Positions 1,587-23,960 of a stretch of 24,000 nt of DNA are shown here, in pieces. Position 1 is the stretch's first letter; the number at the start of each line of letters is the position of its first letter. Where the stretch lies: positions 2,518,499 through 2,542,498 of the forward strand of contig NZ_CP039456.1 in NCBI RefSeq assembly GCF_006974145.1, in the 5' to 3' direction. The DNA is from Changchengzhania lutea (GTDB lineage: Bacteria > Bacteroidota > Bacteroidia > Flavobacteriales > Flavobacteriaceae). Position numbers and translations under genes: made by a program. The notes below the pieces were generated by a model, which did no database searches, was not told where the DNA came from, and saw only the letters and a program-made list of their open reading frames with translations.

Positions 1587-1733
1587 TGCGCAGTCTGACG
1601 GTCTTGTATATGGAAAGTTGCGGGTTTGTGTGCGAGGATTTTCCGAAGGAAAATCAGACGTAGCAAACGTGCAACGACCTTTGATTTAGCACAACACCAG
1701 CAATTTTTTATAGGACACTGTGTTGTGGTGCGT
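1587..1733. repeat. Palindromic element PE1 (long imperfect inverted arms plus central hairpin)
   Basis: Arm 1601-1621 (GTCTTGTATATGGAAAGTTGC) pairs with arm 1700-1716 (GCAATTTTTTATAGGAC), with four G:T wobbles on the plus strand and a 4-nt bulge. The central hairpin GATTTTCC-GAA-GGAAAATC is at 1637-1655. The right terminus is TGTGTTGTGGTGCG. The element ends 8 nt before the stop of the antitoxin gene. Confidence 0.55.
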
Positions 1734-1740
1734 TATTTTT

Positions 1741-2025
1741 TCAAGCTGACATTGGATTCACTTGAATTTGTCCTCCGATTGCTTTTAATACTTTCATAAT
1801 TGTCGCAAATTGAGGTTTCGCTCCATCAGATAATGCTTTGTATAAACTCGGTCTGCTTAATCCGGTTTCCTCCGCAATTTTTGTCATTCCGATTGCTTTC
1901 GCAATATGTCCGATTGCATTAATTATATCCGCATTATTTCCCTCTTCCAAAACAGTATTGAGATATTCCGCAATCATTTCTTTGCTGTCTAAATAATCTG
2001 CTATTTCAAATCTTGAAGTTCCCAT
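1741..2025 (-). CDS. Type II antitoxin, HigA-like HTH addiction-module antidote protein
   Basis: 94 aa. It carries the HTH segment MTKIAEETGLSRPSLYKALS characteristic of the addiction-module antidote family that lies downstream of RelE-like killers. It starts 4 nt after the toxin gene. Confidence 0.85.
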   Translation of the reverse strand: MGTSRFEIADYLDSKEMIAEYLNTVLEEGNNADIINAIGHIAKAIGMTKIAEETGLSRPSLYKALSDGAKPQFATIMKVLKAIGGQIQVNPMSA

Positions 2026-2028
2026 TTT

Positions 2029-2328
2029 CTATTTATTTAATTTTTTCCAAATTTCTTTCGCTTTTGCAATGTCTTTTTGCTGAGTAGATTTATCTCCACC
2101 AATAAGCAATACAATTACTTTTCCGTCTTTTTCTTTAAAGTAAACTCTGTAGCCTTTCGCAAAATTTATTCGCATTTCCCGAATTCCGTCGCCAACTGTT
2201 TTACAATCGCCAAAATGTTCGTCAGTTTCTAATTTTTGAATTCTGAACAAAATTTTCGCCTTTGCTTTAAAGTCTTTTAGCTTTCTTAGCCATTTGTCAA
2301 ATTCATTTGTTTTCTCAATAAAGAACAT
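2029..2328 (-). CDS. Type II toxin, RelE/ParE-superfamily addiction-module killer protein
   Basis: 99 aa. The size and sequence pattern (FDKWLRKL ... GIREMRINFAKGYRVYF ... LLIGGDKSTQQKDI) match the killer partner of the HigA-like antidote family. Toxin-first gene order is as in higBA. Confidence 0.85.
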   Translation of the reverse strand: MFFIEKTNEFDKWLRKLKDFKAKAKILFRIQKLETDEHFGDCKTVGDGIREMRINFAKGYRVYFKEKDGKVIVLLIGGDKSTQQKDIAKAKEIWKKLNK

Positions 2329-2333
2329 AAATA

Positions 2334-2353
2334 TTGTATCTACTTGGATACAA
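2334..2353. promoter_or_regulatory. Candidate TA operator palindrome TTGTATC-N6-GATACAA
   Basis: A perfect 7-bp inverted repeat (2334-2340 and 2347-2353) lies immediately upstream of the toxin start codon at 2328. Type II TA operons are usually autoregulated at such palindromes. Confidence 0.4.
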
Positions 2354-2420
2354 AGTTAAGAAAAATATTTGAATAAATTCAGTTCAGATTGAGTTTTTAG
2401 CAGAGTGAGTTTTAAAATGG

Positions 2421-2558
2421 TTGGCAACGTGTCCGTGTATGGTTTGTTGCGTGGTTTGGTAACTAATTTAGTAAATAATTACCGACCAAGAAAATCCGCG
2501 AGGATTTTCGCAAGTAAGTAAAAAGCCAGCAATAAATTATACGGTGTTACCAAACGTT
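2421..2558. repeat. Palindromic element PE2
   Basis: The left terminus is TTGGCAACGTGTCCGTGTATGG and the right terminus is ATTATACGGTGTTACCAAACG. The arms pair imperfectly. The central hairpin GAAAATCC-GCG-AGGATTTTC is at 2490-2509, and an additional hairpin GGTAACTAATTTA/TAAATAATTACC is at 2457-2484. Confidence 0.6.
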
Positions 2559-2580
2559 TGTATAGTCATTATTCGATTTA

Positions 2581-3453
2581 CTATTTGAGCCTGAGTGCTT
2601 CAATAAACCCAGCATCTACCCACATTAGTTTCTTGCCATTGGCATGAAACCGTGTAAAGAAAAAGTATTTCCCATCTGATGTCACACTGCCATAACCATC
2701 TGGGAGTTCTGTATTTATCTTATTCCCTAAATTAATTGCAGCGCCCCATGAACCATCTTCATGACGAAAACTAATATACATATCATTATTACCATATCCG
2801 CCTTCTCCTTCTCGGGCATCCCAGATCAAATAGGATTCATCCGGAGCTACGAATGGGTGGAATTTCCTTGTTCCAATATCAATGTCAAATGTTCTCGGTT
2901 TTTCACGTATGCCGTCTATTAATCGTGAATAACGAATAGTTCCTACTGCAGATGACTTATCATAAAAGGGTGACGAATCAAAATAGTAAGTCCCTTTAAA
3001 TGAAGTCGTAAGGCGCATAATGGGAATAGAATCAAACGGTTCGCCAAGGCTTTTCACCTCTGACCAACCAGAACTGGTTCGCTCTCTATACTCGTTTCCT
3101 ATGTGCATAATCTTACCGTCAGGAGAAATCTCGTCTTTGGGTACCACAAAAGACTCGGTCCATAGATTATCTTTATATTGAAAGGCAATCAACGAATGAT
3201 TTTTTAATTCCTCATCAGATCTGCGGAAATAAATTTCTTCTATATCGGGTGAAAAAGGGGTGTCTAGTTCACTGTGCGCTGTCGAAATAATACGGGGATC
3301 AAAAATTTCAGGAATCGAGCCTGGTGATTTTTGTCCAAAATATGGGCTTACTATAGTTGGTAAATCACCAGCTGTTGTATTCTGTTTTTTTGTATTGCAG
3401 GCATTTAAAAATTGCATCAATGCAAGCATCAAAATAAAATATGCTTTTTTCAT
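2581..3453 (-). CDS. Lipoprotein with TolB/PD40-like beta-propeller repeats (function unknown)
   Basis: 290 aa. The signal peptide has a lipobox (MKKAYFILMLALMQFLNAC). Motifs of the type SPDGK / APDESYL / TSDGKYFFF recur. Confidence 0.6.
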   Translation of the reverse strand: MKKAYFILMLALMQFLNACNTKKQNTTAGDLPTIVSPYFGQKSPGSIPEIFDPRIISTAHSELDTPFSPDIEEIYFRRSDEELKNHSLIAFQYKDNLWTESFVVPKDEISPDGKIMHIGNEYRERTSSGWSEVKSLGEPFDSIPIMRLTTSFKGTYYFDSSPFYDKSSAVGTIRYSRLIDGIREKPRTFDIDIGTRKFHPFVAPDESYLIWDAREGEGGYGNNDMYISFRHEDGSWGAAINLGNKINTELPDGYGSVTSDGKYFFFTRFHANGKKLMWVDAGFIEALRLK

Positions 3454-3474
3454 TTGTTTAAATTTTCTTAAGTG

Positions 3475-3506
3475 TTGGCAACATTGAATTTAAAAATGTT
3501 TGATAA
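3475..3506. repeat. Minimal PE-like hairpin (PE3): TTGGCAACATT-loop-AATGTTTGATAA
   Basis: It carries the same TTGGCAAC terminus as the long PEs, but the arms fold directly on each other. It lies between the esterase stop and the lipoprotein gene start. Confidence 0.35.
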
Positions 3507-3551
3507 CATTCCTACTTCGTTGTATTTGCTAAAAATAAATAGCTTTCACCA

Positions 3552-4376
3552 TTACTCCCCTTCTTTAAGCAAGCTGGCTAACCAATACATACTCCGGATT
3601 GCAGTCATAGGCATTGCTGTTTGATGGTTACCTTCAACCACAATATTTTGTAAGGTTAAACTCTCATCGTTTATGCTTTTAAGCATGGTAATAAATTTTT
3701 CGAAATGAGGGATATCTTCCCCCTCCAATATGCCATATGAAATAAAAACATTTGCGTTCAGTTTTTTTCGCTCTTCAGCTGTAGTAGACTCAATTTCATA
3801 AATTTTCTGTATAACTTCATGATCAACTCCAAGAGCTGGACTACCAAGAATGAAATTTTTAAAGGTATTGGGGTGTTTGGTTAATATGTAAGCACCAACT
3901 AAAGCACCAGCGGAATATCCAAAATAGGTACGTCTGTTAGCATCAGCCCGGTAGTTGCTTTCTACCATCTTAAAGGCATCGTTACTAAGAAAGTTCACAT
4001 AACTGTCCAAATTCCCAAAGTTTATTCCTTTTGACCAGGTAAGCCCAACTATAATAACGTCTTCTATCAGAATTTCAGAGACTGCAGATAATATCTCGAT
4101 ATGTTCTTTCGGAAAAGTAAAATAGATTACAGGGTATTCTAAATCTGTGTTTTTTTCATATCCTTTCGGTAGTTTTATGTAAAGTGTATTTAGTGTATCT
4201 GTTTCAGAATTACTGACCTGGATGACCTGAGTTCTGGGCATTTCATATGCCTTTGCTGTATTATCATTTGCAATACTTTCTTGAGCATAGACTGTGTTAA
4301 GAGATAAAACACATATCAATATTAATAATTTCGTTGTTTTCATGTTTTCTGTTTTCGTTAATGCATTTAATTTCAC
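3552..4376 (-). CDS. Secreted alpha/beta-hydrolase, putative esterase family
   Basis: 274 aa. It has an N-terminal signal-like segment, a nucleophile elbow G-Y-S-A-G (FGYSAGALVG) and a downstream GSPALG plus a histidine near the C-terminus. Confidence 0.65.
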   Translation of the reverse strand: MKLNALTKTENMKTTKLLILICVLSLNTVYAQESIANDNTAKAYEMPRTQVIQVSNSETDTLNTLYIKLPKGYEKNTDLEYPVIYFTFPKEHIEILSAVSEILIEDVIIVGLTWSKGINFGNLDSYVNFLSNDAFKMVESNYRADANRRTYFGYSAGALVGAYILTKHPNTFKNFILGSPALGVDHEVIQKIYEIESTTAEERKKLNANVFISYGILEGEDIPHFEKFITMLKSINDESLTLQNIVVEGNHQTAMPMTAIRSMYWLASLLKEGE

Positions 4377-4450
4377 CTTATTCTGTTGTAGAACGATTTT
4401 ACTATCATTTTATATTTCAAAAATGAAACTATATGGGCAGTAACTAAATT

Positions 4451-4486
4451 TTAATCTATGAAAGTGTATTGTTAATCTATGAAAGT
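4451..4486. promoter_or_regulatory. Tandem direct repeats TTAATCTATGAAAGT x2 at 21-bp period; candidate LytTR-regulator binding site
   Basis: Identical 15-mers occur at 4451-4465 and 4472-4486, about 75 bp upstream of the esterase start (4376) and just downstream of the LytTR regulator stop. A related pair lies at 6266-6297. Confidence 0.45.
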
Positions 4487-4495
4487 AAAATTTAG

Positions 4496-5176
4496 TTATT
4501 CTTTTAAGGAATCTAGGACATATGCTTTGAGCGTTTTGCCAATAGGGATTTTTAATTCGTCACTTAAATAAATAAGATTGCCATATACTTTTTTGATCTT
4601 ATTTATATTGACAATGTATGATCTATGTGGTTGTAAAAAATTAAACCCTTTTAATTTCTCATTCCAGTTTCTTAATGAGTCCAAGATGAGATATTCTCTT
4701 TTATTTGTAGCAATATTAATATAATCGGCTTCGCCTTTTATGAACAATATATCTTCAATTTGAATATTAAAGAATGTTTTATCGGTGTAGACAAACACAT
4801 TCTTTTTTGATTCATTTCTTTCTAGGGCTGCTTGATTTCTGATTCTATCTACTGCTTTAAAGAAGCGTTCGTACGAAAAAGGTTTGACTAAATAGTCAGT
4901 AACAGCTTCTTCAAAGGCCTCTATTGCGTAATTAGGATATGCGGTGGTTATAATTACCTTGGGAGGGTTTTTAAGTGTTTTCAAAAATGCAAGTCCACTT
5001 AATTCTGGTAATTGAATGTCTAAGAATAATAAATCTGTATTTTGAAGTGATGACAATGGAATATGCAGCCCACTTTCATACACACCTTTAGATGAAAGAA
5101 ACGGTGTTTTTTCTATATATTTTTGCAAAACCCGCTGTGCCGGTTTCTCATCTTCTAAAACAATACATTTAATCAT
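4496..5176 (-). CDS. LytTR-family two-component response regulator
   Basis: 226 aa. The N-terminal receiver domain (MIKCIVLEDE ... LLFLDIQLP ... K) is followed by a C-terminal LytTR DNA-binding domain (ILFIKGEADYINI ... HRSYIVNINKI). It overlaps the kinase gene by 4 nt. Confidence 0.9.
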   Translation of the reverse strand: MIKCIVLEDEKPAQRVLQKYIEKTPFLSSKGVYESGLHIPLSSLQNTDLLFLDIQLPELSGLAFLKTLKNPPKVIITTAYPNYAIEAFEEAVTDYLVKPFSYERFFKAVDRIRNQAALERNESKKNVFVYTDKTFFNIQIEDILFIKGEADYINIATNKREYLILDSLRNWNEKLKGFNFLQPHRSYIVNINKIKKVYGNLIYLSDELKIPIGKTLKAYVLDSLKE

Positions 5177-6201
5177 AATTTAATATGTAAATCTATCTTA
5201 AATTTATTATTTGAATGATCAATTATTAATTGATGGCTTTTTGGAAATAGTAATTCCAACCGTTTTTTTGTATTCTTAATACCAATTCCGCTTTCTACCC
5301 AATCCGAATCTATTTCTTTATCAGTATTTTCTACATAAGGATTTTCACAATTAAATATAAAATCATTCTTTAAAAGCCTTATTTTTATATTTAAATTATG
5401 ATTTATCCCGGTCATCATGCTTGAATATTTGAAGGCATTCTCAACAAAAGAAATAAGTAAAAGAGGTGGTATTAATTGATCATAATTGTCTATACTTTCT
5501 TTCCAATTTACATTTACTTTATTAGACAATCGCTCTTGCTGAAGATTGATATAGTCTTTTAAATGACGTACTTCTTTTTCTAAAGGAACTTTATTTTTTT
5601 GTCCTTCGTTTAAAACATATCTAAAATTATCAGCTAGCTTTAAAATCAACTCAGGTGTTTTCTCTTCTTTATCTAAAGCACTAGCATAAATGGTATTTAA
5701 TGTATTAAATAAAAAGTGCGGATTAATTTGCCCTTTTAGCAATCTCAATTGAGCCTTTTGTTCCTTACCTGATATTTCGTTAATCTCTTGCTGTTTTTTA
5801 TACAACTGTTTTATAGAAAATAACGCAAAAAATACCAGTCCAAATACTCCATCACTAATAAATCGAGTTGCATTCTTAATGATAGTCCTTTTATCTAAGG
5901 AAAAACCATTTTCTGGATGAAAAAAGTTATCTATATACATGTAAAGAACTATATTGAATACCACCAATAAGGAAAGGAGAATAAAATGATACCATTTTTG
6001 TTTAATTTTAAAAAACCACAGATATAGTATATATGCTGGTATCATATTAAAAATAAGCTCAGCTATATCGTGCCAAATACTATCTTTATACTCAAATCCC
6101 ATTGTTAGGGATAGCATTCTAGGATATATAAGAATTATACTCCAGAAAAGGATGTGTATAAGGGGTTCATACCTTAAAACTTTTTGATAGGTTTTATTCA
6201 T
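5173..6201 (-). CDS. Membrane sensor histidine kinase, LytS/YehU-type (partner of the LytTR regulator)
   Basis: 342 aa. Several N-terminal hydrophobic segments precede the H-box motif NPHFLFNTLNTI and a C-terminal ATPase-like region. Confidence 0.85.
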   Translation of the reverse strand: MNKTYQKVLRYEPLIHILFWSIILIYPRMLSLTMGFEYKDSIWHDIAELIFNMIPAYILYLWFFKIKQKWYHFILLSLLVVFNIVLYMYIDNFFHPENGFSLDKRTIIKNATRFISDGVFGLVFFALFSIKQLYKKQQEINEISGKEQKAQLRLLKGQINPHFLFNTLNTIYASALDKEEKTPELILKLADNFRYVLNEGQKNKVPLEKEVRHLKDYINLQQERLSNKVNVNWKESIDNYDQLIPPLLLISFVENAFKYSSMMTGINHNLNIKIRLLKNDFIFNCENPYVENTDKEIDSDWVESGIGIKNTKKRLELLFPKSHQLIIDHSNNKFKIDLHIKL

Positions 6202-6265
6202 TTAACTTTATAAATGTAATTTACACAACAAATTTGATTAATTATTATTTGCTTATAAAAAAAAT

Positions 6266-6297
6266 TCTATGAAAGTATTTAAAAAATCTTTAAACGT
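6266..6297. promoter_or_regulatory. Second pair of LytTR-box-like direct repeats (TCTATGAAAGT / TCTTTAAACGT, 21-bp period)
   Basis: The core TCTATGAAAGT at 6266-6276 is identical to the core of the 4451 repeats. An 8/11 match sits exactly 21 bp away at 6287-6297. Both lie 65-95 bp upstream of the kinase start (6201). Confidence 0.4.
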
Positions 6298-6594
6298 GAT
6301 GTTGGCCTTGAGACTAAATCTTACTTTCAAATTGGTAGTAATTTACTATAAATGATTACAGATCATAGGATTTTCTAGCTATCAGTTACAGAAACAGGAA
6401 AGTGACACCATGAGAGCATCTTTTTATTGAATCAATTTGACCCCAAATAAAACTAAATAAAATGAAAACCCATCATTTAAGTTTTTATAATGTTTGGTAA
6501 CGTTTTTGTATAAGAATAGCCCTTATGTTTGTAGTAGTCAATACGAAGTTTAGTATTTATCTTTCTATTTTAAAGAACTAAAGATAGGACAATT

Positions 6595-7062
6595 ATGGAA
6601 AAGGCATTTACAAAGTTAGATTATAGCGGACAAAATATTTATATTGGATTGGATACGCATTTAAAGAATTGGAAAGCTACCATACGAGTAGGCGATACCT
6701 TTTATAAGTCTTTCTCACAGGACCCAGAAGCTGTTATTTTATCAAAATATTTACATAAACACTTTCCTGGGGGTAATTATTACTCGGCTTATGAGGCTAG
6801 TTTTAGTGGCTTTAAAGCGCATCGTGAATTAACCAAATTAGGTATTTACAATATTGTGGTCAACCCAGCAGACATACCAACGACAGATAAAGAGCGTAAA
6901 CAAAAGGAAGACGCAAGAGATAGTCGAAAAATAGCTGAGCAATTGGCGGCATCAAATTTAGTGGGGATACACATTCCGGATATTGAGATAGAGGGCGATC
7001 GTTCACTACTGAGGTTCCGTAAAACATTGACCAAAGAAATTGCCAGGAACAAAGTTGCGTGA
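6595..7062 (+). pseudogene. IS110-family transposase, N-terminal (DEDD/RuvC-like) fragment only
   Basis: The 155 aa (IYIGLDTHLKNW ... NPADIP ... KTD ..DA) align with the first ~150 aa of the intact 351-aa IS110-family protein at 17529-18584. The C-terminal Transposase_20 part is absent. Confidence 0.8.
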
Positions 7063-7132
7063 TTTAAGCACTAAAGTTAGTAAATAAATCACAGATAGAA
7101 AGTCCGTGAGGGCTTTCGTAAATAGGCGAGAA

Positions 7133-8576
7133 CCCAATGTCATTAAGTTAAGGTTTTTCAAATGCTATCTTTCTGATTTTTAGTTATTTTTGGTTTGGTT
7201 CTAGTTCTATATTTAGCCAAATCTCTTTTAAATGACCGATTAGGTCTTATAGGAACCATGTTTTCCATAAATAGCTGTTTGAGTTCATTCAGCGGTTCTT
7301 CTATTGAGCTTTCGGTAAAAAATAATTCTACAACTCTATTTTTTAAAAAACCATAGGAGAGGTTTTTGTTAATTTTGTAATCTAATCTTCTTTGTTTATT
7401 CTTTTCTGCTATTTCATCTTCTAACTCACTGACAATTAGTCTTTGTATGTTACTAATAAATAGAGCTGCGTAAAAATCTTGTAGAATACTTTGTTTAGAG
7501 TATCCAGAAAAATGTTCTACTTTCAGTTTGTTTTTTAACTCGTCATAAAATGTTTCTACATTCCATCGTTTGTAATAAAGTGATTTAAATATGCTGTTGG
7601 GATAACTTTTAATATCGTACAAAGAGGTCATTAATATTTCAACCTGCCCTTTTGGTAGTTCTACTCTGATAAGCCTTACTTTGATAGGTTTTGATTTATC
7701 TAAACCTTTATCTGATTGTTTTATGTATATACCAGGACTTATGGTTACTATTTGAGACTTTTTTTTGCTTTTTTCAAAATTGATAATAAGTTTGCTAAAG
7801 CCTATCTGCACACGTATTACATAATCCAAATTATTGGTAATGTGATATTTGATAAAATCATATGATGGATATCCTCTATCGTAGAGTATTAAATCACCTT
7901 GCTTACAATGGGTTAAATGTGAGAGTGCCATAGCGCGTTCGCCTTGACTTACTGGCGCTAGTTCACCATCTATAACATAATTGTTTTCCAGATCATATAA
8001 AACAGAACATCTTGCTTGTACGATACTCGTTGTGGTATGGTTTTTTGTTTCCCCAAAATATGACTTTAGTTCTTTTGTTAGTGGTAAAGTAACCCGAGAA
8101 CCATCTACTGCCAACAGTCTAAATCCTTTCCAAGTTTTAATAGCGCACTCATTATCTGTATAAAACTCTTCTATTAAAGTATGTGAAAGATGTTTAAATA
8201 CTATAGGGCTTATTTTCTTTCGCGCTTGTACAAAAGCACTTTTGGTAAACTTTTGGGTTGGACTTATTTTTAAAAAACTTAAAAAATTTTCTAATTCAAG
8301 GGATAAACTTTTACGTAGCATATTCAACATAAGTAGTAAGATAGTAGAAAATTCTTGTTTTCGTTTACGTGTAAAGTCCTTTTCTGAAATTCTAAATTCA
8401 GTTTTTAATGTGTCATTGAATAATTCTGCTTTTAATTTCTTAAAAATTAAAATAGTAGTTTTTTTTCATCTTTATAATTGGTTGATTACCAATTAAATAT
8501 ACGAATAAATTTACAAAAAAACAAATTTAAACTACTGTGAATCAACTAATTAACACCTTAACTTAATGACATTGGG
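7133..8576 (-). mobile_element. IS4-family insertion sequence with perfect 22-bp terminal inverted repeats
   Basis: CCCAATGTCATTAAGTTAAGGT at 7133-7154 has an exact reverse complement at 8555-8576. A single DDE transposase gene lies inside. I see no clean target-site duplication. Confidence 0.85.
7158..8330 (-). CDS. IS4-family DDE transposase
   Basis: 390 aa. It has LLAVDGS (first D), YDRGY (second D region) and the Y-x2-R-x3-E-x6-K signature in YYKRWNVETFYDELK. Confidence 0.9.
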   Translation of the reverse strand: MLNMLRKSLSLELENFLSFLKISPTQKFTKSAFVQARKKISPIVFKHLSHTLIEEFYTDNECAIKTWKGFRLLAVDGSRVTLPLTKELKSYFGETKNHTTTSIVQARCSVLYDLENNYVIDGELAPVSQGERAMALSHLTHCKQGDLILYDRGYPSYDFIKYHITNNLDYVIRVQIGFSKLIINFEKSKKKSQIVTISPGIYIKQSDKGLDKSKPIKVRLIRVELPKGQVEILMTSLYDIKSYPNSIFKSLYYKRWNVETFYDELKNKLKVEHFSGYSKQSILQDFYAALFISNIQRLIVSELEDEIAEKNKQRRLDYKINKNLSYGFLKNRVVELFFTESSIEEPLNELKQLFMENMVPIRPNRSFKRDLAKYRTRTKPKITKNQKDSI

Positions 8577-8793
8577 CTAGAACTAGCAATTAATTTTATA
8601 CGGTGTTGAACGAATCCTCCCTACCGGTCGGAAGCCCATCTCCGAGTCTTCGAAGGGGAGTTCTTTTGTAAATATAATAGATTTATTAATTTGTATCTAA
8701 ATTTTAAAATGAATATTATGTTTAAAAAAAAGTAAAACCATTGCTGAACGCGCTTTTGATGAAGTTGCAGGTTTCAGTACCCTTCAAGACAAG

Positions 8794-11899: not shown

Positions 11900-11960
11900 T
11901 TATTCGGTTTTTTCTAATTCTGACTAACGTTCTTGTTTTTTTTCCTTGTTTTTTAGACTT

Positions 11961-12182: not shown

Positions 12183-12207
12183 TTTTTAGTTAAGATGTTT
12201 TTAATTG

Positions 12208-14525: not shown

Positions 14526-14530
14526 ATCGA

Positions 14531-16371: not shown

Positions 16372-16568
16372 ACAATGGCTATAGTTAATACGGGTTTTGG
16401 CGCTTAACCCAAAGTTTGGTGTATTTTTATAAAGTCCGCCAAATCTTTTGATTTGGCTTTAGAACAAAAAAGATAAAACAAAATAAAAAGTTTTGGCTAA
16501 TTGCTTAATCGGAAATTAATTACTTTTAATTCCCGTACTAACCATAGCCGAGACGTTGCCAGTAATGC
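16372..16568. repeat. Palindromic element PE8 (about 190-bp type)
   Basis: The 18-nt arms GGCTATAGTTAATACGGG (16377-16394) and CCCGTACTAACCATAGCC (16532-16549) give 16 Watson-Crick pairs plus 2 A:C. The central hairpin GCCAAATC-TTTT-GATTTGGC is at 16438-16457. The right terminus is ACGTTGCCAGTAATGC. Its left terminus is interrupted by introns I2 and I1. Confidence 0.7.
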
Positions 16569-16632: not shown

Positions 16633-16869
16633 ATGGATTTACAAACTAGAAAACTCAATTTAATAACCTATTTGGCTCAAATTAAGGACGAAATATTTTT
16701 TGATAAACTAGAAAATTATATCCTAAAGAAAGAAGTTGAACATAATCCAGGCTTAAAACCATTTACTGTTGAGGAGTTAATCAATAGAATTGAGAAGTCT
16801 GAATTGGATTTAAAAAACGGAAACTTTAAAAGTCAAGAAGATTTAGAGAAAATATCTGCAAATTGGTAG
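16633..16869 (+). CDS. Putative antitoxin partner of the ParE/RelE-family toxin
   Basis: This 78-aa acidic protein lies immediately upstream of the toxin gene, with its stop 2 nt before the toxin ATG. The assignment is by position; I cannot name the family. Confidence 0.6.
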   Translation: MDLQTRKLNLITYLAQIKDEIFFDKLENYILKKEVEHNPGLKPFTVEELINRIEKSELDLKNGNFKSQEDLEKISANW

Positions 16870-16871
16870 GA

Positions 16872-17189
16872 ATGAAAATAGTTTGGACTGATTTTGCTAT
16901 CAGAAATTTAAAGGACATTTTTGACTATTATTCTACTAAAGCTAATAAAAAGGTTGCTCATAAAATTAGAAGACAAATCCTTAAATCTTCAAAACAGCTT
17001 AAAAATAATCCGAATTCTGGCCCAATTGAATCAAGCCTCACAATACTTAAGAAAAATCATAGGTATTTAGTGAGCGGAAACTACAAATTGATTTACAGAC
17101 TAATAGATAATCAAGTAATAATAAATGATGTTTTTGACACAAGGCAAAATCCATCTAAAATGAATGATGAAAAGCGAAAAGCGGAATAA
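16872..17189 (+). CDS. Type II toxin, ParE/RelE family
   Basis: About 105 aa counted from the ATG at 16872 (MKIVWTDFAIRNLKDIFDYY ... YRLIYRL ... VFD.R). The pattern is typical of plasmid-stabilisation ParE-like toxins. The tracked ORF start at 16863 is a TTG that overlaps the antitoxin stop. Confidence 0.8.
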   Translation: MKIVWTDFAIRNLKDIFDYYSTKANKKVAHKIRRQILKSSKQLKNNPNSGPIESSLTILKKNHRYLVSGNYKLIYRLIDNQVIINDVFDTRQNPSKMNDEKRKAE

Positions 17190-17235
17190 AGCACTACTGG
17201 CAACACCGTGTCCTATGAAAAGCACTAGCCTAGTT

Positions 17236-18660
17236 CTTCAAAGTTAATATTTATTTTTTTAATTATCTCATAATGATGATTCTGTGGTGTTGGAATGTTG
17301 ATAATTCCGATAGGATTATCAATATTTCAATCGCCTTTAAATAACTTGCTCCGCATCCTATATGTGATCCATTGTAAAACTTGATGGTCACCAGCATCTG
17401 TATGATTATAAGTTATAATAAACCTGGCCACTTGCTATAAATGTGTGATACCTATTAATCTGGTTCACCTACGGTGTTCTGTGATACAGGTTTTGCTACT
17501 TCTTTGTGAGCTTGGTTATTGATTTATATTATTCTATAACACCTATGGTGTAGGGTGTTTCTGTTTTTATGACCGCTAAGGTTCTACTCAATAATTTACG
17601 TGCTATTTTCACTATGATGCTCTTTGCGTTCTTCCCTACGTGTTTTCTATAATAGGCTTGCATCACAGGATCTGTACGTATGGCTTGCCATGAGGCTTCT
17701 ATAAAATAACTCCGCATTAATCGGTGTGCTCGCATGGTAATGCCTGTGTGCCTTTGGTTGTCTCCACTTTGGTGAATTCCTGGTGCTAGACCTACATAGC
17801 CCGCCAAACGTTTTATGCTATTAAAGCGGCGCAAATCTCCCAACTCGCAGATGATACCACAAGCGACAATACCTCCTATTCCTGGAATACTGCGTAAAAG
17901 ATAATAGTCCTTTTTATAATGCTTGCGACAATAAGCCCGAAGTTTGGTAGACACATCGCGTAATTCCTTATCTATAAATCTGAAGTTTCGCATCCTGCTA
18001 TCCAAAGTCTCTCGAGCTGTGGGATGACTAAAAGTCAAGGCGTCTAGCCAATCTCTAAATTTATGACTCCAATGATCATTATCAAAGGCCTCTGGAATGC
18101 TTACGCCAAAATACAATAACTGCATTTTTATGTAACTCTTCACCCGTCTAAAATCCTTGACCAAGTCGTTGCGTCTTCTAAAAAGACTACGTAGTTGCTC
18201 ACGCTCTACTTCTGGAATAGTAATACTCTCCAATCTGCCATCCTTTAGTTCTCTGGCTATTAATTGGGCATCGATCTTATCGGTCTTGGTAAAGCGTTCT
18301 TTTCCCTTGCGATGGATATCTGCTGGATTTACAACCAGTGAGCGCCAGCCATATCCTTCAAAATTGCGATGGGCGTAATAACCACAGCAGCCTGCTTCGT
18401 AAGCTGTTGAAACTTCATGACCCTTAAAATGGGTAGTGACATACGTTTTTAATAACTCTGGCTTTGGTGGCATGGTAAAGGACTTTCCTGAAAATAAATC
18501 CGTAGCACAGTGAATTTTCCAACTACGTTTGTGAATGTCAATACCAATGTATAACTTTGGTTGGGCAGTAATTTGAGTGTTCATATCTTTTAAGTTTTTG
18601 TGAATTATAAAGATACTTGACTTACTGCTTTTTCATGGATGCTATAATTAATGGCTAGTT
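17236..18660 (-). mobile_element. IS110-family insertion sequence (IS1111-like layout: ~70-nt 5' and ~290-nt 3' non-coding ends)
   Basis: CTAGTT is present at both junctions (17230-17235 and 18655-18660). Removing 1425 bp restores a continuous PE arm. There are no terminal inverted repeats, as expected for this family. The boundary could equally be 17230-18654. Confidence 0.7.
17529..18584 (-). CDS. IS110-family DEDD transposase/recombinase
   Basis: 351 aa. The N-terminal RuvC-like DEDD domain (LYIGIDIHKRSW ... E ... NPADI ... KTDKIDA) is followed by a C-terminal Transposase_20 region (IPGIGGIVACGIICELGDLRRF ... GLAPGIHQSG). Confidence 0.95.
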   Translation of the reverse strand: MNTQITAQPKLYIGIDIHKRSWKIHCATDLFSGKSFTMPPKPELLKTYVTTHFKGHEVSTAYEAGCCGYYAHRNFEGYGWRSLVVNPADIHRKGKERFTKTDKIDAQLIARELKDGRLESITIPEVEREQLRSLFRRRNDLVKDFRRVKSYIKMQLLYFGVSIPEAFDNDHWSHKFRDWLDALTFSHPTARETLDSRMRNFRFIDKELRDVSTKLRAYCRKHYKKDYYLLRSIPGIGGIVACGIICELGDLRRFNSIKRLAGYVGLAPGIHQSGDNQRHTGITMRAHRLMRSYFIEASWQAIRTDPVMQAYYRKHVGKNAKSIIVKIARKLLSRTLAVIKTETPYTIGVIE

Positions 18661-18770
18661 TTAGGTTAATTAAGAAAATCCTCTCGGATTTTCTATCTGG
18701 TGTTTATTTGCTAAATTAGGTACTTAAACACGCCACTAATCATATACATAAACGTTAGCTTTAATTTAAA

Positions 18771-19133
18771 ATGCACCACGTTAAAGAATTTATAATAGAT
18801 AATAAAGACAAAATATTTGACTCAATTTCGGCTATTGGACTGATTCTTGACATGATAGGTGTTTATTTATTATTTAAGTTAAAAGATAAATATTTCGACA
18901 GACTAAAAATCGCATTTAAAATAGAACGTAAAATTCCATTTGCAGGAGATTCTAAACCTGTTAATTTAGTTAACTCATCTATAAGGATTTTAAAAAATGA
19001 ATTTAATGACATGATTAATGAATTAACTTTAAAAAACCAAGAAACGAGTAAAAAAGCCAACAAAGCAATGGTATTAATAATATTGGGTTTTGGATTACAG
19101 TTTTTAGTATATGCAATAAAGATATTTCACTAA
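18771..19133 (+). CDS. Hypothetical small membrane protein
   Basis: The 120 aa have hydrophobic segments near both ends (ISAIGLILDMIGVYLLF and MVLIILGFGLQFLVYAI). I recognise no family. Confidence 0.5.
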   Translation: MHHVKEFIIDNKDKIFDSISAIGLILDMIGVYLLFKLKDKYFDRLKIAFKIERKIPFAGDSKPVNLVNSSIRILKNEFNDMINELTLKNQETSKKANKAMVLIILGFGLQFLVYAIKIFH

Positions 19134-19270
19134 CTGAATAGTGTTTTGTAAAAAAAATATAAAAAGATATTGCGGTACCCATCAAAAAAATATGGAATAA
19201 AAGAAACATATAATCTGACTTTAAACCAAAAAAATAGATTATGATTAGAGCAAAAACTAAAGCTAATTGA

Positions 19271-21120
19271 GTAGACGGGTGACGACTTAAAAGTCGTCAC
19301 TGCGCCTCTCACACCACCGTACGTACGGGTCTCGTATACGGCGGTTCACCAAATTGAAGTTTGCGTATTATTAATGTAATCTAACAAAGGTTTATACCCT
19401 TTTCGTTTAAGTCTAGAGACTGTAATAGTAGTCTTTAGAATAGGACTTTGAGCAACTGCCCAGCCTCCCATTCTTGTTCTACTCCAAGCATAGGCTTGTC
19501 CGATTTCTATACCTAATTGAATTAGGTTTTTACGTTTCCGTTCTAGTTTCTTCCAATCGTGCCAAATACAATAGCGCAACCGATTTCTTAGCCACTCATC
19601 TAGCTTTTTACTTTTTGCATAGATGTTGGTTAAGCGGTAATTGTTCATCCAGCCTCGGCAGACTTGATTAAGTCGTTCGAGTCGTTCTAACAACGACATG
19701 GGTTTGGTTTTCTTGGTTATACTTTTTAGGTTACGTTTAAACTTTGCCCAACTTTTATTGGCTACCACTAGTACATATTGTCCTTTTACACCCTTTTTAT
19801 AGATGGGTACAAAACCATGCCCGAGTAACTCAAAGTTTACAGGTCTGCGGATGCCACTTTTGGCTTTGTTTATAGGTAATTTAAGTTTATCTTTTAAGAA
19901 GACAAACAGTCTATTTCCTATTTGTTTAGCCTCGCTTTTGCTTTTGGCGTAAACGCTAAAATCATCAGCGTAGCGAACATAACGCAAGCCCATGCTTTTC
20001 ATTTCTTTGTCCAAAACATCTAACATAATATTAGATAATAAGGGACTAATTGGACTGCCTTGCGGGATGCCTTTTCTGCGCTTTTGGAGTTTTCCATCTA
20101 TTAATATGGGAACTCTAAGCCATTTTCGGATTAATCGCAAAGTGGTCGGACATTTTACCTTGTGGTAAATAAGTTGCAGTAAGATACAGTGGTCTACTTG
20201 GTCAAAGAATCCTTCTAAATCAATATCTACAATATCTTGATAACCAGAATTGATATACGTTTGAGCTTGTAATACTGCTTTTTGGATGTTCTTTTGTGGA
20301 CGGAAACCGTAACTAACGGGTTCAAAATCATATTCAAAATGAACCATTAATTGTTGACTTACCGCTTTTTGAAGCCACCTATCGACTACAGTTGGTATTC
20401 CTAATAGTCGGGTTTTACCCTGTCCTTTTGGAATGGTTACTCCTAATATTGAATTTGGATTATAGCTGTTTGTGCGAATAGTCGATAGTATAGTCGAACG
20501 GTTTTCTAATATATAAGCGGAAAGCTCCGTTGTTTTCATACCATCTACACCGCTCGCGCCTTTATTGCGCTCCACTTGTCGTGTTGCTTTAAAAAGGTTT
20601 GTTGCTGATAATACGTTTTCAATCATAGGTTTAATAATTCGTGTACTCCTGTTGGTTTAAAACTAGGCTAGCTAGGCATCCTAATCGAATTCCAACGTAA
20701 TTTAATGTTCTGTCCTTCCCTACTTGTGAGACCATCTGAGGTATTGCCTCAACTCGTTTCCCGTAGGTACTATGACCTCTGCTGACTTCTCCAAATAACC
20801 AACTCGTAGTTTTGGAGACCTCCCCAGGTAATGACATCTTCTTTCTCTCAATCACTGCCGTATCTACATATTTACCCTTTTGGTGTTCGTTGGGCGTTAC
20901 AATGATGTGCTTGCTTACCCAAGTAAATATGCCTCTGTATACGATTTCTGTTCGTCAGTACCGAGTTTTGTAGTTCCGCTTCCTTCAGATAGAACCTCAC
21001 GGTTTTCACCCTTGCGACTTACTAATGCTTCAAGACGTTACTCCTGTACATAAGGGACTTGCACCCTCTAGATTAATTATTTACCTTTCCGTAAATAAAA
21101 GATGCCCATGCTGGGCACAC
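19271..21120 (-). mobile_element. Group II intron I3 (class C-like), identical copy of I4
   Basis: 1850 bp. The 5' end is GTGTGCCCAGCATGGGCATC (21120 downward). Domain V is CCGCCGTATACGAGACCCGTACGTACGGTGG. The terminal hairpin is GTGACGAC-TTTTAA-GTCGTCAC, and the 3' end is ...CCGTCTAC (19271). Confidence 0.85.
19346..20626 (-). CDS. Group II intron reverse transcriptase/maturase (no endonuclease domain)
   Basis: 426 aa with the motifs RLLGIPTVVDRWLQ, GIPQGSPISPLLSN, YADDFSVY and RGWMNNY. Confidence 0.95.
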   Translation of the reverse strand: MIENVLSATNLFKATRQVERNKGASGVDGMKTTELSAYILENRSTILSTIRTNSYNPNSILGVTIPKGQGKTRLLGIPTVVDRWLQKAVSQQLMVHFEYDFEPVSYGFRPQKNIQKAVLQAQTYINSGYQDIVDIDLEGFFDQVDHCILLQLIYHKVKCPTTLRLIRKWLRVPILIDGKLQKRRKGIPQGSPISPLLSNIMLDVLDKEMKSMGLRYVRYADDFSVYAKSKSEAKQIGNRLFVFLKDKLKLPINKAKSGIRRPVNFELLGHGFVPIYKKGVKGQYVLVVANKSWAKFKRNLKSITKKTKPMSLLERLERLNQVCRGWMNNYRLTNIYAKSKKLDEWLRNRLRYCIWHDWKKLERKRKNLIQLGIEIGQAYAWSRTRMGGWAVAQSPILKTTITVSRLKRKGYKPLLDYINNTQTSIW

Positions 21121-21256
21121 ACAACGTATAACAGCAAATAGCGGGTATTGTACTGAAAATTGTCATTTCAGAGATCAAGTAACAAACCACAAAACCGACA
21201 AGAACGTGTCCTTACTCCACGCCACTTGCGTTATACAAGACCGTTGCCATTAATAC
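21121..21256. repeat. Palindromic element PE11 (about 135 bp)
   Basis: Arm GTATAACAGCAAATAGCGGG (21126-21145) pairs with arm CCACGCCACTTGCGTTATAC (21217-21236), with 2 A:C mismatches and 2 single-nt bulges. The central hairpin CTGAAA-N7-TTTCAG is at 21153-21171. The right terminus is CCGTTGCCATTAATAC. The left terminus GCTAATTGA (19262-19270) is separated from it by intron I3. Confidence 0.6.
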
Positions 21257-21289
21257 CAGAAAAACTTTGCGGATTGAAAAAAATGTACT

Positions 21290-21314
21290 AACTTTGTAAT
21301 TACAAAACAAAGTT
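21290..21314. promoter_or_regulatory. Candidate mazEF operator: nested palindromes AACTTTGT-N9-ACAAAGTT and TTGTAATTACAA
   Basis: These perfect inverted repeats end at the nucleotide before the antitoxin ATG (21315). Confidence 0.4.
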
Positions 21315-21560
21315 ATGGAAACAGCAATTATAAAAATTGGAAATTCAAAAGGTCTGCGTTTAAGCAAGACTATTTTGGAAAAATACAACATAAAAGACAA
21401 AGTCGAAATGATTTTAGAAAAAGGACAAATAATCCTAAAGCCAATTGATAGCCCAAGAAAAAATTGGGGAAAAGCGTTTGAAGAGATGCGTGAAAATAAT
21501 GATGACCGATTATTATTCAATGATGTCTTTGAGGACGAAAATTTTGAGGAATGGAATTAG
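21315..21560 (+). CDS. mazE: AbrB/MazE/SpoVT-family antitoxin
   Basis: 81 aa. The N-terminal swapped-hairpin motif (IIKIGNSKGLRLSKTILEKYNI) is followed by an acidic C-terminus. It overlaps the toxin gene by 10 nt. Confidence 0.8.
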   Translation: METAIIKIGNSKGLRLSKTILEKYNIKDKVEMILEKGQIILKPIDSPRKNWGKAFEEMRENNDDRLLFNDVFEDENFEEWN

Positions 21561-21874
21561 AACAGTATTCAATCGTACTCGTAAATCTTGACCCAACAAT
21601 AGGTAGCGAAATTAAAAAAACAAGACCTTGTGTAATTGTTTCGCCAAACGAAATTAATAAGTTTTTAAGAACAATCGTAGTTGCACCAATGACAACGAAC
21701 TTGAAAAATTATCCAACCAGAATTAAAGTAAAGCATAACGGAAAAAAAGGAATGATTGCAATCGACCAAATTCGGACAATTGACAAATCTCGAATAATAA
21801 AAAAGTTTGACCAATTATCGAAATCTGAAATACAGAAATGCAAAGATATTATCAGAGAAACTTTTGTGGATTAA
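21551..21874 (+). CDS. mazF: MazF/PemK-family endoribonuclease toxin
   Basis: 107 aa. VLVNLDPTIGSEIKKTRPCVIVSP ... VVAPMTT ... IDQIRTIDKSR is the typical PemK/MazF pattern. Confidence 0.9.
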   Translation: MELEQYSIVLVNLDPTIGSEIKKTRPCVIVSPNEINKFLRTIVVAPMTTNLKNYPTRIKVKHNGKKGMIAIDQIRTIDKSRIIKKFDQLSKSEIQKCKDIIRETFVD

Positions 21875-21919
21875 AACTGACTTTTGAACAAAAAAACGAA
21901 AAGTACTAATGCCAATTGA

Positions 21920-23769
21920 GTAGACGGGTGACGACTTAAAAGTCGTCACTGCGCCTCTCACACCACCGTACGTACGGGTCTCGTATACGGCGGTTCACCA
22001 AATTGAAGTTTGCGTATTATTAATGTAATCTAACAAAGGTTTATACCCTTTTCGTTTAAGTCTAGAGACTGTAATAGTAGTCTTTAGAATAGGACTTTGA
22101 GCAACTGCCCAGCCTCCCATTCTTGTTCTACTCCAAGCATAGGCTTGTCCGATTTCTATACCTAATTGAATTAGGTTTTTACGTTTCCGTTCTAGTTTCT
22201 TCCAATCGTGCCAAATACAATAGCGCAACCGATTTCTTAGCCACTCATCTAGCTTTTTACTTTTTGCATAGATGTTGGTTAAGCGGTAATTGTTCATCCA
22301 GCCTCGGCAGACTTGATTAAGTCGTTCGAGTCGTTCTAACAACGACATGGGTTTGGTTTTCTTGGTTATACTTTTTAGGTTACGTTTAAACTTTGCCCAA
22401 CTTTTATTGGCTACCACTAGTACATATTGTCCTTTTACACCCTTTTTATAGATGGGTACAAAACCATGCCCGAGTAACTCAAAGTTTACAGGTCTGCGGA
22501 TGCCACTTTTGGCTTTGTTTATAGGTAATTTAAGTTTATCTTTTAAGAAGACAAACAGTCTATTTCCTATTTGTTTAGCCTCGCTTTTGCTTTTGGCGTA
22601 AACGCTAAAATCATCAGCGTAGCGAACATAACGCAAGCCCATGCTTTTCATTTCTTTGTCCAAAACATCTAACATAATATTAGATAATAAGGGACTAATT
22701 GGACTGCCTTGCGGGATGCCTTTTCTGCGCTTTTGGAGTTTTCCATCTATTAATATGGGAACTCTAAGCCATTTTCGGATTAATCGCAAAGTGGTCGGAC
22801 ATTTTACCTTGTGGTAAATAAGTTGCAGTAAGATACAGTGGTCTACTTGGTCAAAGAATCCTTCTAAATCAATATCTACAATATCTTGATAACCAGAATT
22901 GATATACGTTTGAGCTTGTAATACTGCTTTTTGGATGTTCTTTTGTGGACGGAAACCGTAACTAACGGGTTCAAAATCATATTCAAAATGAACCATTAAT
23001 TGTTGACTTACCGCTTTTTGAAGCCACCTATCGACTACAGTTGGTATTCCTAATAGTCGGGTTTTACCCTGTCCTTTTGGAATGGTTACTCCTAATATTG
23101 AATTTGGATTATAGCTGTTTGTGCGAATAGTCGATAGTATAGTCGAACGGTTTTCTAATATATAAGCGGAAAGCTCCGTTGTTTTCATACCATCTACACC
23201 GCTCGCGCCTTTATTGCGCTCCACTTGTCGTGTTGCTTTAAAAAGGTTTGTTGCTGATAATACGTTTTCAATCATAGGTTTAATAATTCGTGTACTCCTG
23301 TTGGTTTAAAACTAGGCTAGCTAGGCATCCTAATCGAATTCCAACGTAATTTAATGTTCTGTCCTTCCCTACTTGTGAGACCATCTGAGGTATTGCCTCA
23401 ACTCGTTTCCCGTAGGTACTATGACCTCTGCTGACTTCTCCAAATAACCAACTCGTAGTTTTGGAGACCTCCCCAGGTAATGACATCTTCTTTCTCTCAA
23501 TCACTGCCGTATCTACATATTTACCCTTTTGGTGTTCGTTGGGCGTTACAATGATGTGCTTGCTTACCCAAGTAAATATGCCTCTGTATACGATTTCTGT
23601 TCGTCAGTACCGAGTTTTGTAGTTCCGCTTCCTTCAGATAGAACCTCACGGTTTTCACCCTTGCGACTTACTAATGCTTCAAGACGTTACTCCTGTACAT
23701 AAGGGACTTGCACCCTCTAGATTAATTATTTACCTTTCCGTAAATAAAAGATGCCCATGCTGGGCACAC
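21920..23769 (-). mobile_element. Group II intron I4, identical copy of I3
   Basis: It has the same 1850-bp sequence as 19271-21120 at a constant offset of 2649 bp, with identical encoded protein. The flanks differ, so these are two separate insertions. Confidence 0.85.
21995..23275 (-). CDS. Group II intron reverse transcriptase/maturase (no endonuclease domain)
   Basis: The 426 aa are identical to the product of 19346-20626. Confidence 0.95.
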   Translation of the reverse strand: MIENVLSATNLFKATRQVERNKGASGVDGMKTTELSAYILENRSTILSTIRTNSYNPNSILGVTIPKGQGKTRLLGIPTVVDRWLQKAVSQQLMVHFEYDFEPVSYGFRPQKNIQKAVLQAQTYINSGYQDIVDIDLEGFFDQVDHCILLQLIYHKVKCPTTLRLIRKWLRVPILIDGKLQKRRKGIPQGSPISPLLSNIMLDVLDKEMKSMGLRYVRYADDFSVYAKSKSEAKQIGNRLFVFLKDKLKLPINKAKSGIRRPVNFELLGHGFVPIYKKGVKGQYVLVVANKSWAKFKRNLKSITKKTKPMSLLERLERLNQVCRGWMNNYRLTNIYAKSKKLDEWLRNRLRYCIWHDWKKLERKRKNLIQLGIEIGQAYAWSRTRMGGWAVAQSPILKTTITVSRLKRKGYKPLLDYINNTQTSIW

Positions 23770-23960
23770 ACACTGTATATAGCAAATAGGGCATTCGGTG
23801 GTTTGTGAAACTTTGGTAGTTATTTGAAACACCGCCAAATCGTTGATTTGGCTTTTAAGAATGAGTAATTTAAAAACAAAATAAACGATTTGGCTCAGTG
23901 CAAACTTGAAAGTTTATCGCTTTCTACTGCCCTACTTGCCATATACTAACAGTTAGCCAC
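23770..23960. repeat. Palindromic element PE12 (about 190-bp type, homologous to PE8)
   Basis: The arms TATATAGCAAATAGGGCA (23776-23793) and TGCCCTACTTGCCATATA (23928-23945) give 16 Watson-Crick pairs plus 2 A:C, at the same relative positions as in PE8. The central hairpin GCCAAATC-GTT-GATTTGGC is at 23834-23852. The right terminus is CTAACAGTTAGCCAC. The left terminus GCCAATTGA (21911-21919) is separated from it by intron I4. Confidence 0.7.

Follow-up and report, generated by a model that had tools for sequence, protein, structure and literature searches.

In a stretch of 24,000 nucleotides (nt) from Changchengzhania lutea, a member of the Flavobacteriaceae (assembly GCF_006974145.1, contig NZ_CP039456.1, positions 2,518,499 to 2,542,498; 35% G+C; here called the window), palindromic elements (PEs) separate small gene modules. 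We conclude, with a probability of about 0.82, that the window is a stretch of a sedentary integron-like cassette array with noncanonical hairpin sites, served by a cognate tyrosine recombinase without the additional domain of integron integrases. The PEs are cassette recombination sites of the attC kind and not repetitive extragenic palindromic (REP) or miniature inverted-repeat transposable element (MITE) repeats, and the arrays probably represent an integron variant not described before. Integrons, the textbook case of gene capture and shuffling, are defined by an integrase (IntI) with an additional domain and by canonical attC sites. A preliminary description, made from the letters of the window alone, had already read it as an integron-like array with noncanonical sites. 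That reading is supported here, and each of the tests it proposed that we ran came out in its favor.

Related sites were collected by scanning one genome per species with the central motif of the PE2 type as the query, and 360 site copies were placed with a hidden Markov model (HMM). Counts of R boxes, of gaps to open reading frames (ORFs), and of pairing with a site's own flank refer to the 289 sites in loci L001 to L124 plus the window. Read on the ORF strand, a site has an A-rich stretch, 6 to 9 variable nt, AAC (R''), a 3-nt spacer, and a stem, after which come a 6-nt spacer, GTT (R'), and 6 to 9 variable nt that belong to the next cassette. The stem (L''...L') is an imperfect one of about 16 bp and encloses a terminal part that varies and contains small hairpins. 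Measured from AAC to GTT, the sites have a median length of 124 nt, and the 3/6 spacer geometry recurs across them. The palindromes lie where they had been placed, or within a few nt, and both trinucleotides of their AAC...GTT termini are invariant. However, a shared TGGCAAC...GTTGCCA terminus, which had also been put forward, is not a family motif. The R boxes are conserved only as YAAC and GTTR, and the adjoining 6 to 9 nt are cassette specific. The caveat that clean RYYYAAC/GTTRRRY boxes are missing was well placed, because the full RYYYAAC (20/289 sites) and GTTRRRY (22/289) occur at chance level. Two flavors of central hairpin do exist, as described, and the PE2-type copies share a conserved central part with the GAAARTCC/GGAYTTTC hairpin. 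When this conserved part was read by eye, it had no Bacteroidetes promoter (TTG/TAnnTTTG). With gathering thresholds, Rfam found only group II intron domains in the window and no family that matched the sites.

The sites are not scattered among core genes. They form tandem arrays, and a co-oriented ORF has its stop codon no more than 60 nt upstream of the site in 221/289 cases, with a median gap from stop to AAC of 12 nt (interquartile range, 11 to 15). The stop lies within the conserved A-rich, ATAAAAAAC-like stretch. An ORF on the opposite strand ends within 60 nt of the R' end at only 60/289 sites. Cassettes with one or a few ORFs and a hairpin site, in tandem and in one orientation, were seen in the map of the window and in L013, L031, and L205. 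PADLOC returned nothing convincing for the orphan cassette proteins.

In integrons, crossover takes place in the R' core, and the nt after GTT belong to the next cassette and pair with its R''. We propose that each PE is likewise the recombination site that a cassette carries at its 3' end and that crossover at or beside the AAC/GTT core would excise the cassette as a circle. In that circle the cassette start would pair with its own R'', and for this reason the nt after each GTT in the linear array should be complementary to the R'' of the next site. As a flank score, we set the 7 nt that follow GTT against the 7 nt that precede AAC in the HMM-placed copies and counted complementary positions out of 7 (out of 10 for junctions in the window). 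Flanks matched the next site with a mean of 6.0/7, and 83% scored at least 6/7 (n = 203 junctions). As controls, the same flanks were compared with their own site (mean, 2.6/7; at least 6/7 in 2.4%; n = 289), with the previous site (2.3/7; 4.3%; n = 186), and with random sites of other loci (2.5/7; 3.2%; n = 19,739). In the window, this flank rule was kept at six of the seven junctions, with scores of 8 to 9/10, and the exception is the PE2-to-PE1 junction. As far as sequence comparison goes, the rule implies units that circularize and selection for R''/R' pairing.

Cassettes were also found in more than one context. The PemK protein of the window is identical, residue for residue, on four metagenome contigs (L001 to L004) with differing neighbors. 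Homology of these PemK/MazE cassette contigs to the window is limited to positions 21241 to 21915, a stretch that begins at the PE11 GTT and ends at the PE12 AAC. The upstream breakpoint is ..ACG/TTGCCATTA in all four (a slash marks junctions throughout). The downstream breakpoint is ..TAATGGCAA/C in L001 to L003; in L004, homology ends about 6 nt earlier, and another site follows. The 10 nt at either end of the cassette are mutually complementary in L001 to L003, with one mismatch in the window copy. A second cassette, which encodes an HI1420/HigB-like toxin-antitoxin (TA) pair (1723 to 2412), is common to L002 (3047 to 3737), with 84 to 86% identity and breakpoints at the site ends. Turnover of whole modules at the site cores, one of the checks proposed in the preliminary description, was therefore borne out by the PemK/MazE cassette.

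These results bear on the possibility that the PEs are REP-, bacterial interspersed mosaic element-, or MITE-like repeats, or terminators, that attract IS110-family elements and class C introns without any movement of genes. Palindromic intergenic repeats are known targets for both kinds of element, and the folding energies of the long sites are modest (z = -1.5 to -3.6; only PE7 folds strongly, with z of about -9), both of which would suit such repeats. However, repeat spread, terminators, or motifs read by proteins cannot yield the flank rule, because the paired sequences vary from cassette to cassette, and the own, previous, and random controls disfavor an alignment artifact. The same genes occur in different contexts with breakpoints at the repeat cores, the elements have a fixed polarity relative to ORFs, and tandem arrays start at a recombinase gene (see below). 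We regard this explanation as already contradicted and very improbable.

Pairing in the sites is kept while the sequence changes, as the preliminary description had claimed, and covariation in the arms, a further check that it had proposed, is significant. The covariation set consisted of 60 homologous copies that could be aligned end to end, with a structure specified by hand. In this structure, 95.9% of cells were paired, and 87 cells carried double changes versus 32.9 ± 6.1 in shuffles, none of which (0/500) reached the observed count. Double changes dropped to 6 or fewer when the 3' partner was slid. The compensatory stem pairs were GC30:AU27, UA42:AU13, UA43:GC14, and AU42:GC15. The structural evidence for the sites is comparative and is not a matter of folding energy.

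The two strands of a site are not equivalent. At two positions of the stem, the top strand invariably has A·C (58/60 and 60/60 copies), which is G·T on the bottom strand. Because the A·C mismatches turn into G·T pairs, the bottom strand forms the better hairpin; it is more stable in 55/60 copies (mean difference, 2.5 kcal/mol). The long stem of PE2 is formed by the bottom (+) strand only and not by the top strand. The asymmetry extends into the R boxes, where a conserved C on the R'' side (83%) stands opposite an A on the R' side (97%). There is no conserved bulged G or T in these copies, only an optional extra base in some of them. Given the strand asymmetry and the conserved but sequence-variable pairing, the folded bottom strand would be the substrate, as in integrons, with cleavage presumably at or next to AA/C and G/TT.

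This bears on a second possibility, that the same cassettes move by classical double-strand Xer-type recombination at a dif-like core and that the palindrome is accessory. The recombinase described below is Xer-like and lacks the I2 helix that IntI gained for single-strand substrates (PMC7790495), the R' end is laid out as arm-6-arm, with the L' arm, a 6-bp spacer, and the GTT arm, and the attI-like site is a plain duplex motif. A precedent would be the pdif modules of Acinetobacter plasmids (XerC/XerD), which are likewise bounded by Xer-type sites and served by an Xer-like recombinase without the IntI domain. However, pdif sites are 28-bp duplexes in alternating orientation, without a long hairpin or cassette-specific R pairing, and pdif modules have no array origin beside a dedicated recombinase. 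In the arrays studied here, pairing of R'' with the cassette start (up to 9 to 10 bp) is kept at most junctions while its sequence varies, and therefore selection appears to be for pairing and not for a sequence read by a protein. The compensatory stem changes also speak against a purely accessory palindrome, and the invariant A·C versus G·T asymmetry is relevant only if single strands fold. We consider duplex recombination of this kind quite unlikely and favor recombination through folded hairpins.

The cognate enzyme would be an Xer/IntI-like tyrosine recombinase of about 277 residues, with an intact catalytic set and without the I2 domain. Its gene would lie at the array origin beside an attI-like site and is absent from the window. 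An associated recombinase was another check proposed beforehand, and in related loci arrays do begin beside such a gene; four site-centered loci (L031, L010, L060, and L067) have a tyrosine recombinase at the array start. These four proteins score 196 to 206 bits, in two stretches, on the NCBIfam IntI model TIGR02249, which is under its cutoff of 265, and they score above or near the cutoff of the XerA/"integron integrase" model. The recombinase shares with IntI (VchIntIA, 2a3v) the two-domain tyrosine recombinase fold (TM score, 0.70 to 0.72), the catalytic residues, and the C-terminal SPLD tail, with 28 to 29% identity. However, about 43 residues spanning I2/the additional domain are missing, and it is equally close to archaeal XerA (5hxy). 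The L067 protein has 25 residues where VchIntIA has 68, and it aligns to archaeal XerA without gaps. The best structural matches of an AlphaFold model (pLDDT, 85.5) were XerA, without large gaps, and IntI, with about 42 gap columns, and the model has no I2-like helix. Among 20 homologues, the catalytic R, HxxR, H, and Y show little or no variation. The recombinases are named XerD or "tyrosine-type recombinase" in databases and never integron integrase.

The left boundary of a first cassette was defined as GTT with the reverse complement of the first R'' right after it, and it was searched for in 11 integrase-adjacent loci. It was 50 to 430 nt from the gene in 8 of them: in five co-oriented loci it lies 50 to 216 nt downstream of the gene, and in three divergent ones 174 to 427 nt upstream; no such boundary was found near the gene in the other 3. 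An isolate of Gelatiniphilus marinus (L205) has a recombinase gene and a junction ..TATACTAAC/GTT, after which at least 10 junctions in a row (read by eye) obey the rule and separate unrelated genes, including GmrSD-like and NucS-like ones. About 100 nt upstream of the gene, L205, L206, L207, and L067 carry a conserved attI-like motif, AGTTTGnnTATACTAAC/GTT. The only attI-like sequence in the window is PE7, which is a palindrome of this motif. The co-oriented recombinases of L010 (6742 to 7869) and L060 (5715 to 6896) have an N-terminal extension of about 100 residues, and the recombinase gene overlaps a hairpin site at its 3' end in L163, L173, and L174. As a side observation, a GC-rich mini-cassette without an ORF, about 190 nt long (GTTCGGCGGC...GCCGCCGAAC together with a GC-rich hairpin), occurs twice in L205, at 9713 to 10000 and at 641 to 1021. 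One of these two copies holds the first position beside attI in the G. marinus array.

We also approached the arrays from the recombinase, with 80 metagenome loci that were fetched by the recombinase alone (only 32/80 are at least 7 kb long). Array detection by exact GTT+7...rc7+AAC links alone (where rc7 is the reverse complement of the 7 nt) was dropped; shuffles had 2.0 links per 10 kb versus 8.0 observed. Because this AT-rich background was too high, the detector was replaced by a hairpin scan combined with the flank rule, which returned 0 false loci in shuffled controls. Hairpin-site pairs that obeyed the rule were found in 10/80 recombinase-first loci versus 0 in shuffled controls. The PE2-type HMM had matches in only 3/80 of these loci because other lineages have different site sequences. 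PE2-type sites themselves occur in more than 120 genome loci, nearly all of them in marine Flavobacteriaceae, with genera that include Polaribacter, Winogradskyella, Tenacibaculum, Aquimarina, Maribacter, and Lacinutrix. GC-rich metagenome arrays (L140, L186, L193, and L144) keep to the AAC-spacer-stem-spacer-GTT geometry and to the flank rule, with sites of about 120 nt, and the recombinases that adjoin them are 42 to 47% identical to the 277-aa query, with no inserted segment. Since the GC-rich sites of L140, L186, and L193 have the same geometry, the system is not limited to AT-rich Flavobacteriaceae.

A third possibility is that the window is part of an ordinary integron, either clustered attC sites without an integrase (CALIN) or part of a sedentary chromosomal integron, with divergent attC sites, a canonical IntI encoded elsewhere, and the Xer-like recombinases as bystanders. 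The cassette logic is wholly that of integrons, group IIC-attC-type introns target these sites exactly as they do attC (see below), the window has no integrase, and CALINs are common (PMC9024848). However, no recombinase reached the IntI threshold in about 200 array-bearing or related loci, and arrays begin 50 to 430 nt from the recombinase without the additional domain, at a conserved junction motif. The R boxes fit the RYYYAAC/GTTRRRY consensus only at chance level, and surveys find essentially no integrons in Bacteroidetes apart from Salinibacter. An ordinary integron with a distant IntI is therefore unlikely in our judgment, and we prefer an array with its own recombinase that lacks the additional domain.

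Several observations weigh against this preferred interpretation. The evidence for recombination is wholly comparative. At the PE2-to-PE1 junction, the start of the TA cassette at 1741 to 2328, GTTGCCAACC, does not pair with its own R'', AACGCACCAC (in the L002 copy of this cassette, the start does pair with R''). The L004 copy of the PemK cassette also breaks the flank rule, with a different R'' and site at its end (L004, 1010 to 1060). The window has no array integrase, and a canonical IntI may be encoded elsewhere in the genome. The recombinase belongs to a protein family of more than 7,320 members, which surely includes enzymes with other roles, and 70/80 recombinase-first loci, many of them short, have no array by the strict detector. 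There are two architectures, one with a co-oriented integrase upstream of the array and one in which integrase and array diverge, a mix that a single simple platform model does not predict. The I2 helix is taken to be needed by integron integrases for hairpin recombination (PMC7790495), and an enzyme without it may work differently. Finally, the sites may already stand as CALINs in some data set.

With sedentary chromosomal integrons (superintegrons, whose attC sites include the Vibrio cholerae repeats [VCRs]) and CALINs, the arrays share tandem cassettes made of an ORF and a hairpin site, AAC...GTT termini, and TA cassettes. They also share a distal R' that belongs to the next cassette and pairs with its R'', sites that are homogeneous within a lineage (like VCRs), and an attI-like junction by the recombinase gene. 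In part, the sites also resemble attC in an unpaired spacer between the R and L boxes, a variable terminal structure, and a favored bottom strand. They differ in R boxes that depart from the RYYYAAC/GTTRRRY consensus, in spacers of 3 and 6 nt rather than 5 and 6, in a long L stem (about 16 bp), and in an asymmetry that comes from A·C/G·T and not from the classical extrahelical G and T. Moreover, R-box pairing here reaches 9 to 12 bp, the IntI additional domain is missing from the recombinase, the integrase gene often lies upstream of the array and points the same way, and the host clade is Flavobacteriaceae, for which integrons are reported to be all but absent. The arrays show integron cassette logic in bacteria that are abundant in the sea. 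Functionally the system is an integron; by the usual definition, what it lacks is the IntI additional domain and canonical R boxes.

Surveys made with IntegronFinder list only one complete integron in Bacteroidetes, and a 2024 study counts Bacteroidota among the clades without integrons. The I2 helix has been described as an innovation that enabled single-strand recombination and is thought to be needed for recombination of hairpins (PMC7790495). A literature search of partial coverage found no description of integrons or attC sites in Flavobacteriaceae or Bacteroidota or of integrases without the additional domain. We think the chances are about even that the arrays are a widespread, unannotated class of integrons in marine Flavobacteriaceae and apparently other Bacteroidota-like lineages whose sites are richer in GC, in which an I2-less, Xer-like enzyme shuffles cassettes via folded hairpins. 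If so, cassette recombination at hairpin sites does not need the domain taken to define integron integrases, and the elements would be a sister lineage of known integrons or a pre-I2 stage of their evolution. This would also explain why the phylum looks free of integrons in current surveys. Confirmation would widen both the definition and the known host range of integrons, provide a natural test of whether single-strand hairpin recombination needs the I2 helix, and expose a large pool of unannotated mobile cassettes (TA, abortive infection-type, and other defense-type genes). The GTT-X...rc(X)-AAC rule would then serve as a simple, sequence-independent detector.

Resolved against homologues, the window has eight sites (PE1, PE2, PE4, PE7, PE8, PE10, PE11, and PE12) (Table 1), and not the ten or more counted in the preliminary description. 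PE5 was rejected as a site of its own because it is the R'' box of PE4 (11017 to 11028), beside the end of an IS91-like element. PE3 (about 3470 to 3530), inside the 3.9-kb module, is probably not a site; it has no convincing stem, and the flank rule skips it, because the R' of PE4 matches the R'' of PE2 at 9/10 positions. The gene content is as had been stated. By Pfam and NCBIfam, there are three TA pairs, several small or family-less ORFs, and one four-gene block, and the mobile elements are four group II introns, IS110-family elements (one complete, one truncated), an IS4 element, and an IS91-family element.

Table 1. Sites, cassettes, and insertions in the window (positions are those of the window; an empty cell means that no strand is assigned)
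Feature	Position	Strand	Description
PE1	1597-1734	-	Terminal site of left array, decayed; AAC 1724-1722
TA cassette	1741-2328	-	HI1420-type antitoxin (1741-2025) and Gp49/HigB-like toxin (2029-2328) (Pfam)
PE2	2416-2558	-	Complete site, commonest type; AAC 2548-2546, GTT 2428-2426; nhmmer score 94.8
Four-gene module, 3.9 kb	2559-6498	-	Bounded by PE4 R' and PE2 R'', complementary 9/10
PE4	6499-11028	-	Single site interrupted by three nested insertions
PE4 segment	6499-6519		R' and L'
PE4 segment	6520-7053		IS110 fragment
PE4 segment	7054-7132		Site body
PE4 segment	7133-8576		IS4
PE4 segment	8577-8607		Site body
PE4 segment	8608-11016		IS91-like element
PE4 segment	11017-11028		R''
Left array, first cassette	11027-12212	-	ORFs 11961-12182 (73 aa, membrane) and 11027-11899 (290 aa, no family)
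PE7	12213-12271		Near-perfect palindrome; two attI-like halves in inverted orientation, with ..TTATACTAAC/GTT on either strand
Right array, first cassette	12272-12658	+	Small ORF 12429-12638 (69 aa); ends in PE8 R'' (12648-12658)
Introns A and B in PE8 R''	A, 12659-14525; B, 14526-16371	-	Inserted at TTGT/T; Rfam
PE8 remainder	16372-16568	+	AC, AAT spacer, stem ... GAGAC, GTT at 16555-16557
TA cassette	16633-17189	+	78-aa antitoxin candidate and ParE-family toxin
PE10	17192-18767	+	R'' and start of L'' 17192-17210; IS110-family element 17211-18642 (minus strand); remainder 18643-18756, GTT 18754
ORF cassette	18771-19133	+	120 aa, membrane, no family
PE11	19255-21256	+	R'' 19255-19265; intron C 19266-21120 (minus strand); remainder 21121-21245, GTT 21243
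TA cassette MazE/PemK	21315-21874	+	Cassette also met in other contexts
PE12	21904-23964	+	R'' 21904-21914; intron D 21915-23769 (minus strand); remainder 23770-23954, GTT 23952

A minus-strand and a plus-strand array diverge from PE7, and the flank rule is kept on both sides of it (9/10 each). From PE7, the left array consists of the two-ORF cassette (12212 to 11027), PE4, the 3.9-kb module, PE2, the TA cassette, and the decayed PE1. The right array consists of the small cassette, PE8, a TA cassette, PE10, the ORF cassette, PE11, a TA cassette, and PE12, and it continues past the window. In the first cassette of the left array, the start, GTTGGCAACA, and the R'', AACTGTTGCCAA, are complementary at 9/10 positions. 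The four-gene module encodes, on the minus strand (2581 to 6201), a PD40 lipoprotein, an esterase, a LytTR response regulator, and a histidine kinase. PE1 is damaged, with GTC in place of GTT at 1599 to 1597 and an L''/stem that is impaired compared with the intact homologues in L021 and L072. The reconstructions of PE8 and PE12 are borne out base for base by uninterrupted homologues (PE8 type, L052 1474 to 1665 and L151 7492 to 7672; PE12 type, L056 3814 to 4001). PE7 has DNA-fold z values of -8.5 and -9.0. It is a double attI-like palindrome without an integrase gene. Among the related loci that were fetched, the best long matches to the window are 81 to 95% identical.

As had been noted, the window has no IntI, and the recombinase of related arrays is not a canonical one either. 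Both tyrosine recombinases of the window (9 to 1307 and 8794 to 9609) are below the integron-integrase threshold. The first, of 432 residues, was rejected as the array integrase. It is of the CTnDOT type, with Arm-DNA-bind_5, SAM_5, and catalytic domains, it has no homologue at array origins, and its gene is convergent with the decayed distal end of the left array. An exact look-up of its sequence found no record. The left array may abut or sit inside an integrative element. The second, an Xer/IntI-like protein of 271 residues, is unlikely to be the array integrase; it lies inside the IS91-like element (8608 to 11016), upstream of the Y2 transposase gene, and lacks the HxLR catalytic motif.

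The sites are insertion hot spots for group IIC-attC-type introns and for IS110-family, IS4, and IS91-like elements. Introns B, C, and D are oriented against the cassette ORFs. Their 5' exons are the site hairpin followed by TTGT, TTGT, and GTGT, respectively, and their 3' exons begin with the T of the bottom-strand GTT of R''. The target of IIC-attC introns has been published as TTGT/T at R'' (PMC7923331; PMC3001079), and the junctions in the window (TTGT/T and GTGT/T) equal it. Boundaries that had been assigned at 16372, 21121, and 23770 are the exact intron-site junctions. The intron proteins are reverse transcriptase/maturases with RVT_1 and GIIM domains only and no endonuclease domain. 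By analogy, in target and domains, these introns resemble group IIC-attC introns such as S.ma.I2, which also lack an endonuclease domain, lie opposite to cassette transcription, and use the bottom-strand TTGT/T of R''; the host sites differ, being of the Flavobacteriaceae type and not canonical attC. Another difference is that intron A abuts intron B in tandem (14525/14526), with no exon base between them and both at the single TTGT/T target of PE8. The Rfam D1-D4 type of intron A differs from that of introns B, C, and D.

The IS4 element carries 25-bp inverted repeats. The ends of the IS91-like element abut the R'' core in every copy seen (..NNAA/ in 4/4 and /AACACC in 2/2), which was also seen at positions 2630 and 3738 of L002 and in L039. 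The IS110-family element of PE10 is inserted at GTG^TAT of L'', and in L006 an IS110-type end abuts this same L'' position. A fixed position and orientation within a recombination site is also typical of the IS1111-attC subgroup of the IS110 family, as is a long noncoding end downstream of the transposase gene; the target here, however, is the L'' of a different site family. In the PE10 element, this noncoding end spans 17211 to 17528 (318 nt). An 8-mer within it (17471 to 17478; reverse complement, AACACCGT) equals the left flank of the target in the site and, from its sequence, may belong to a guide RNA, or the match may be due to chance (roughly 1%).

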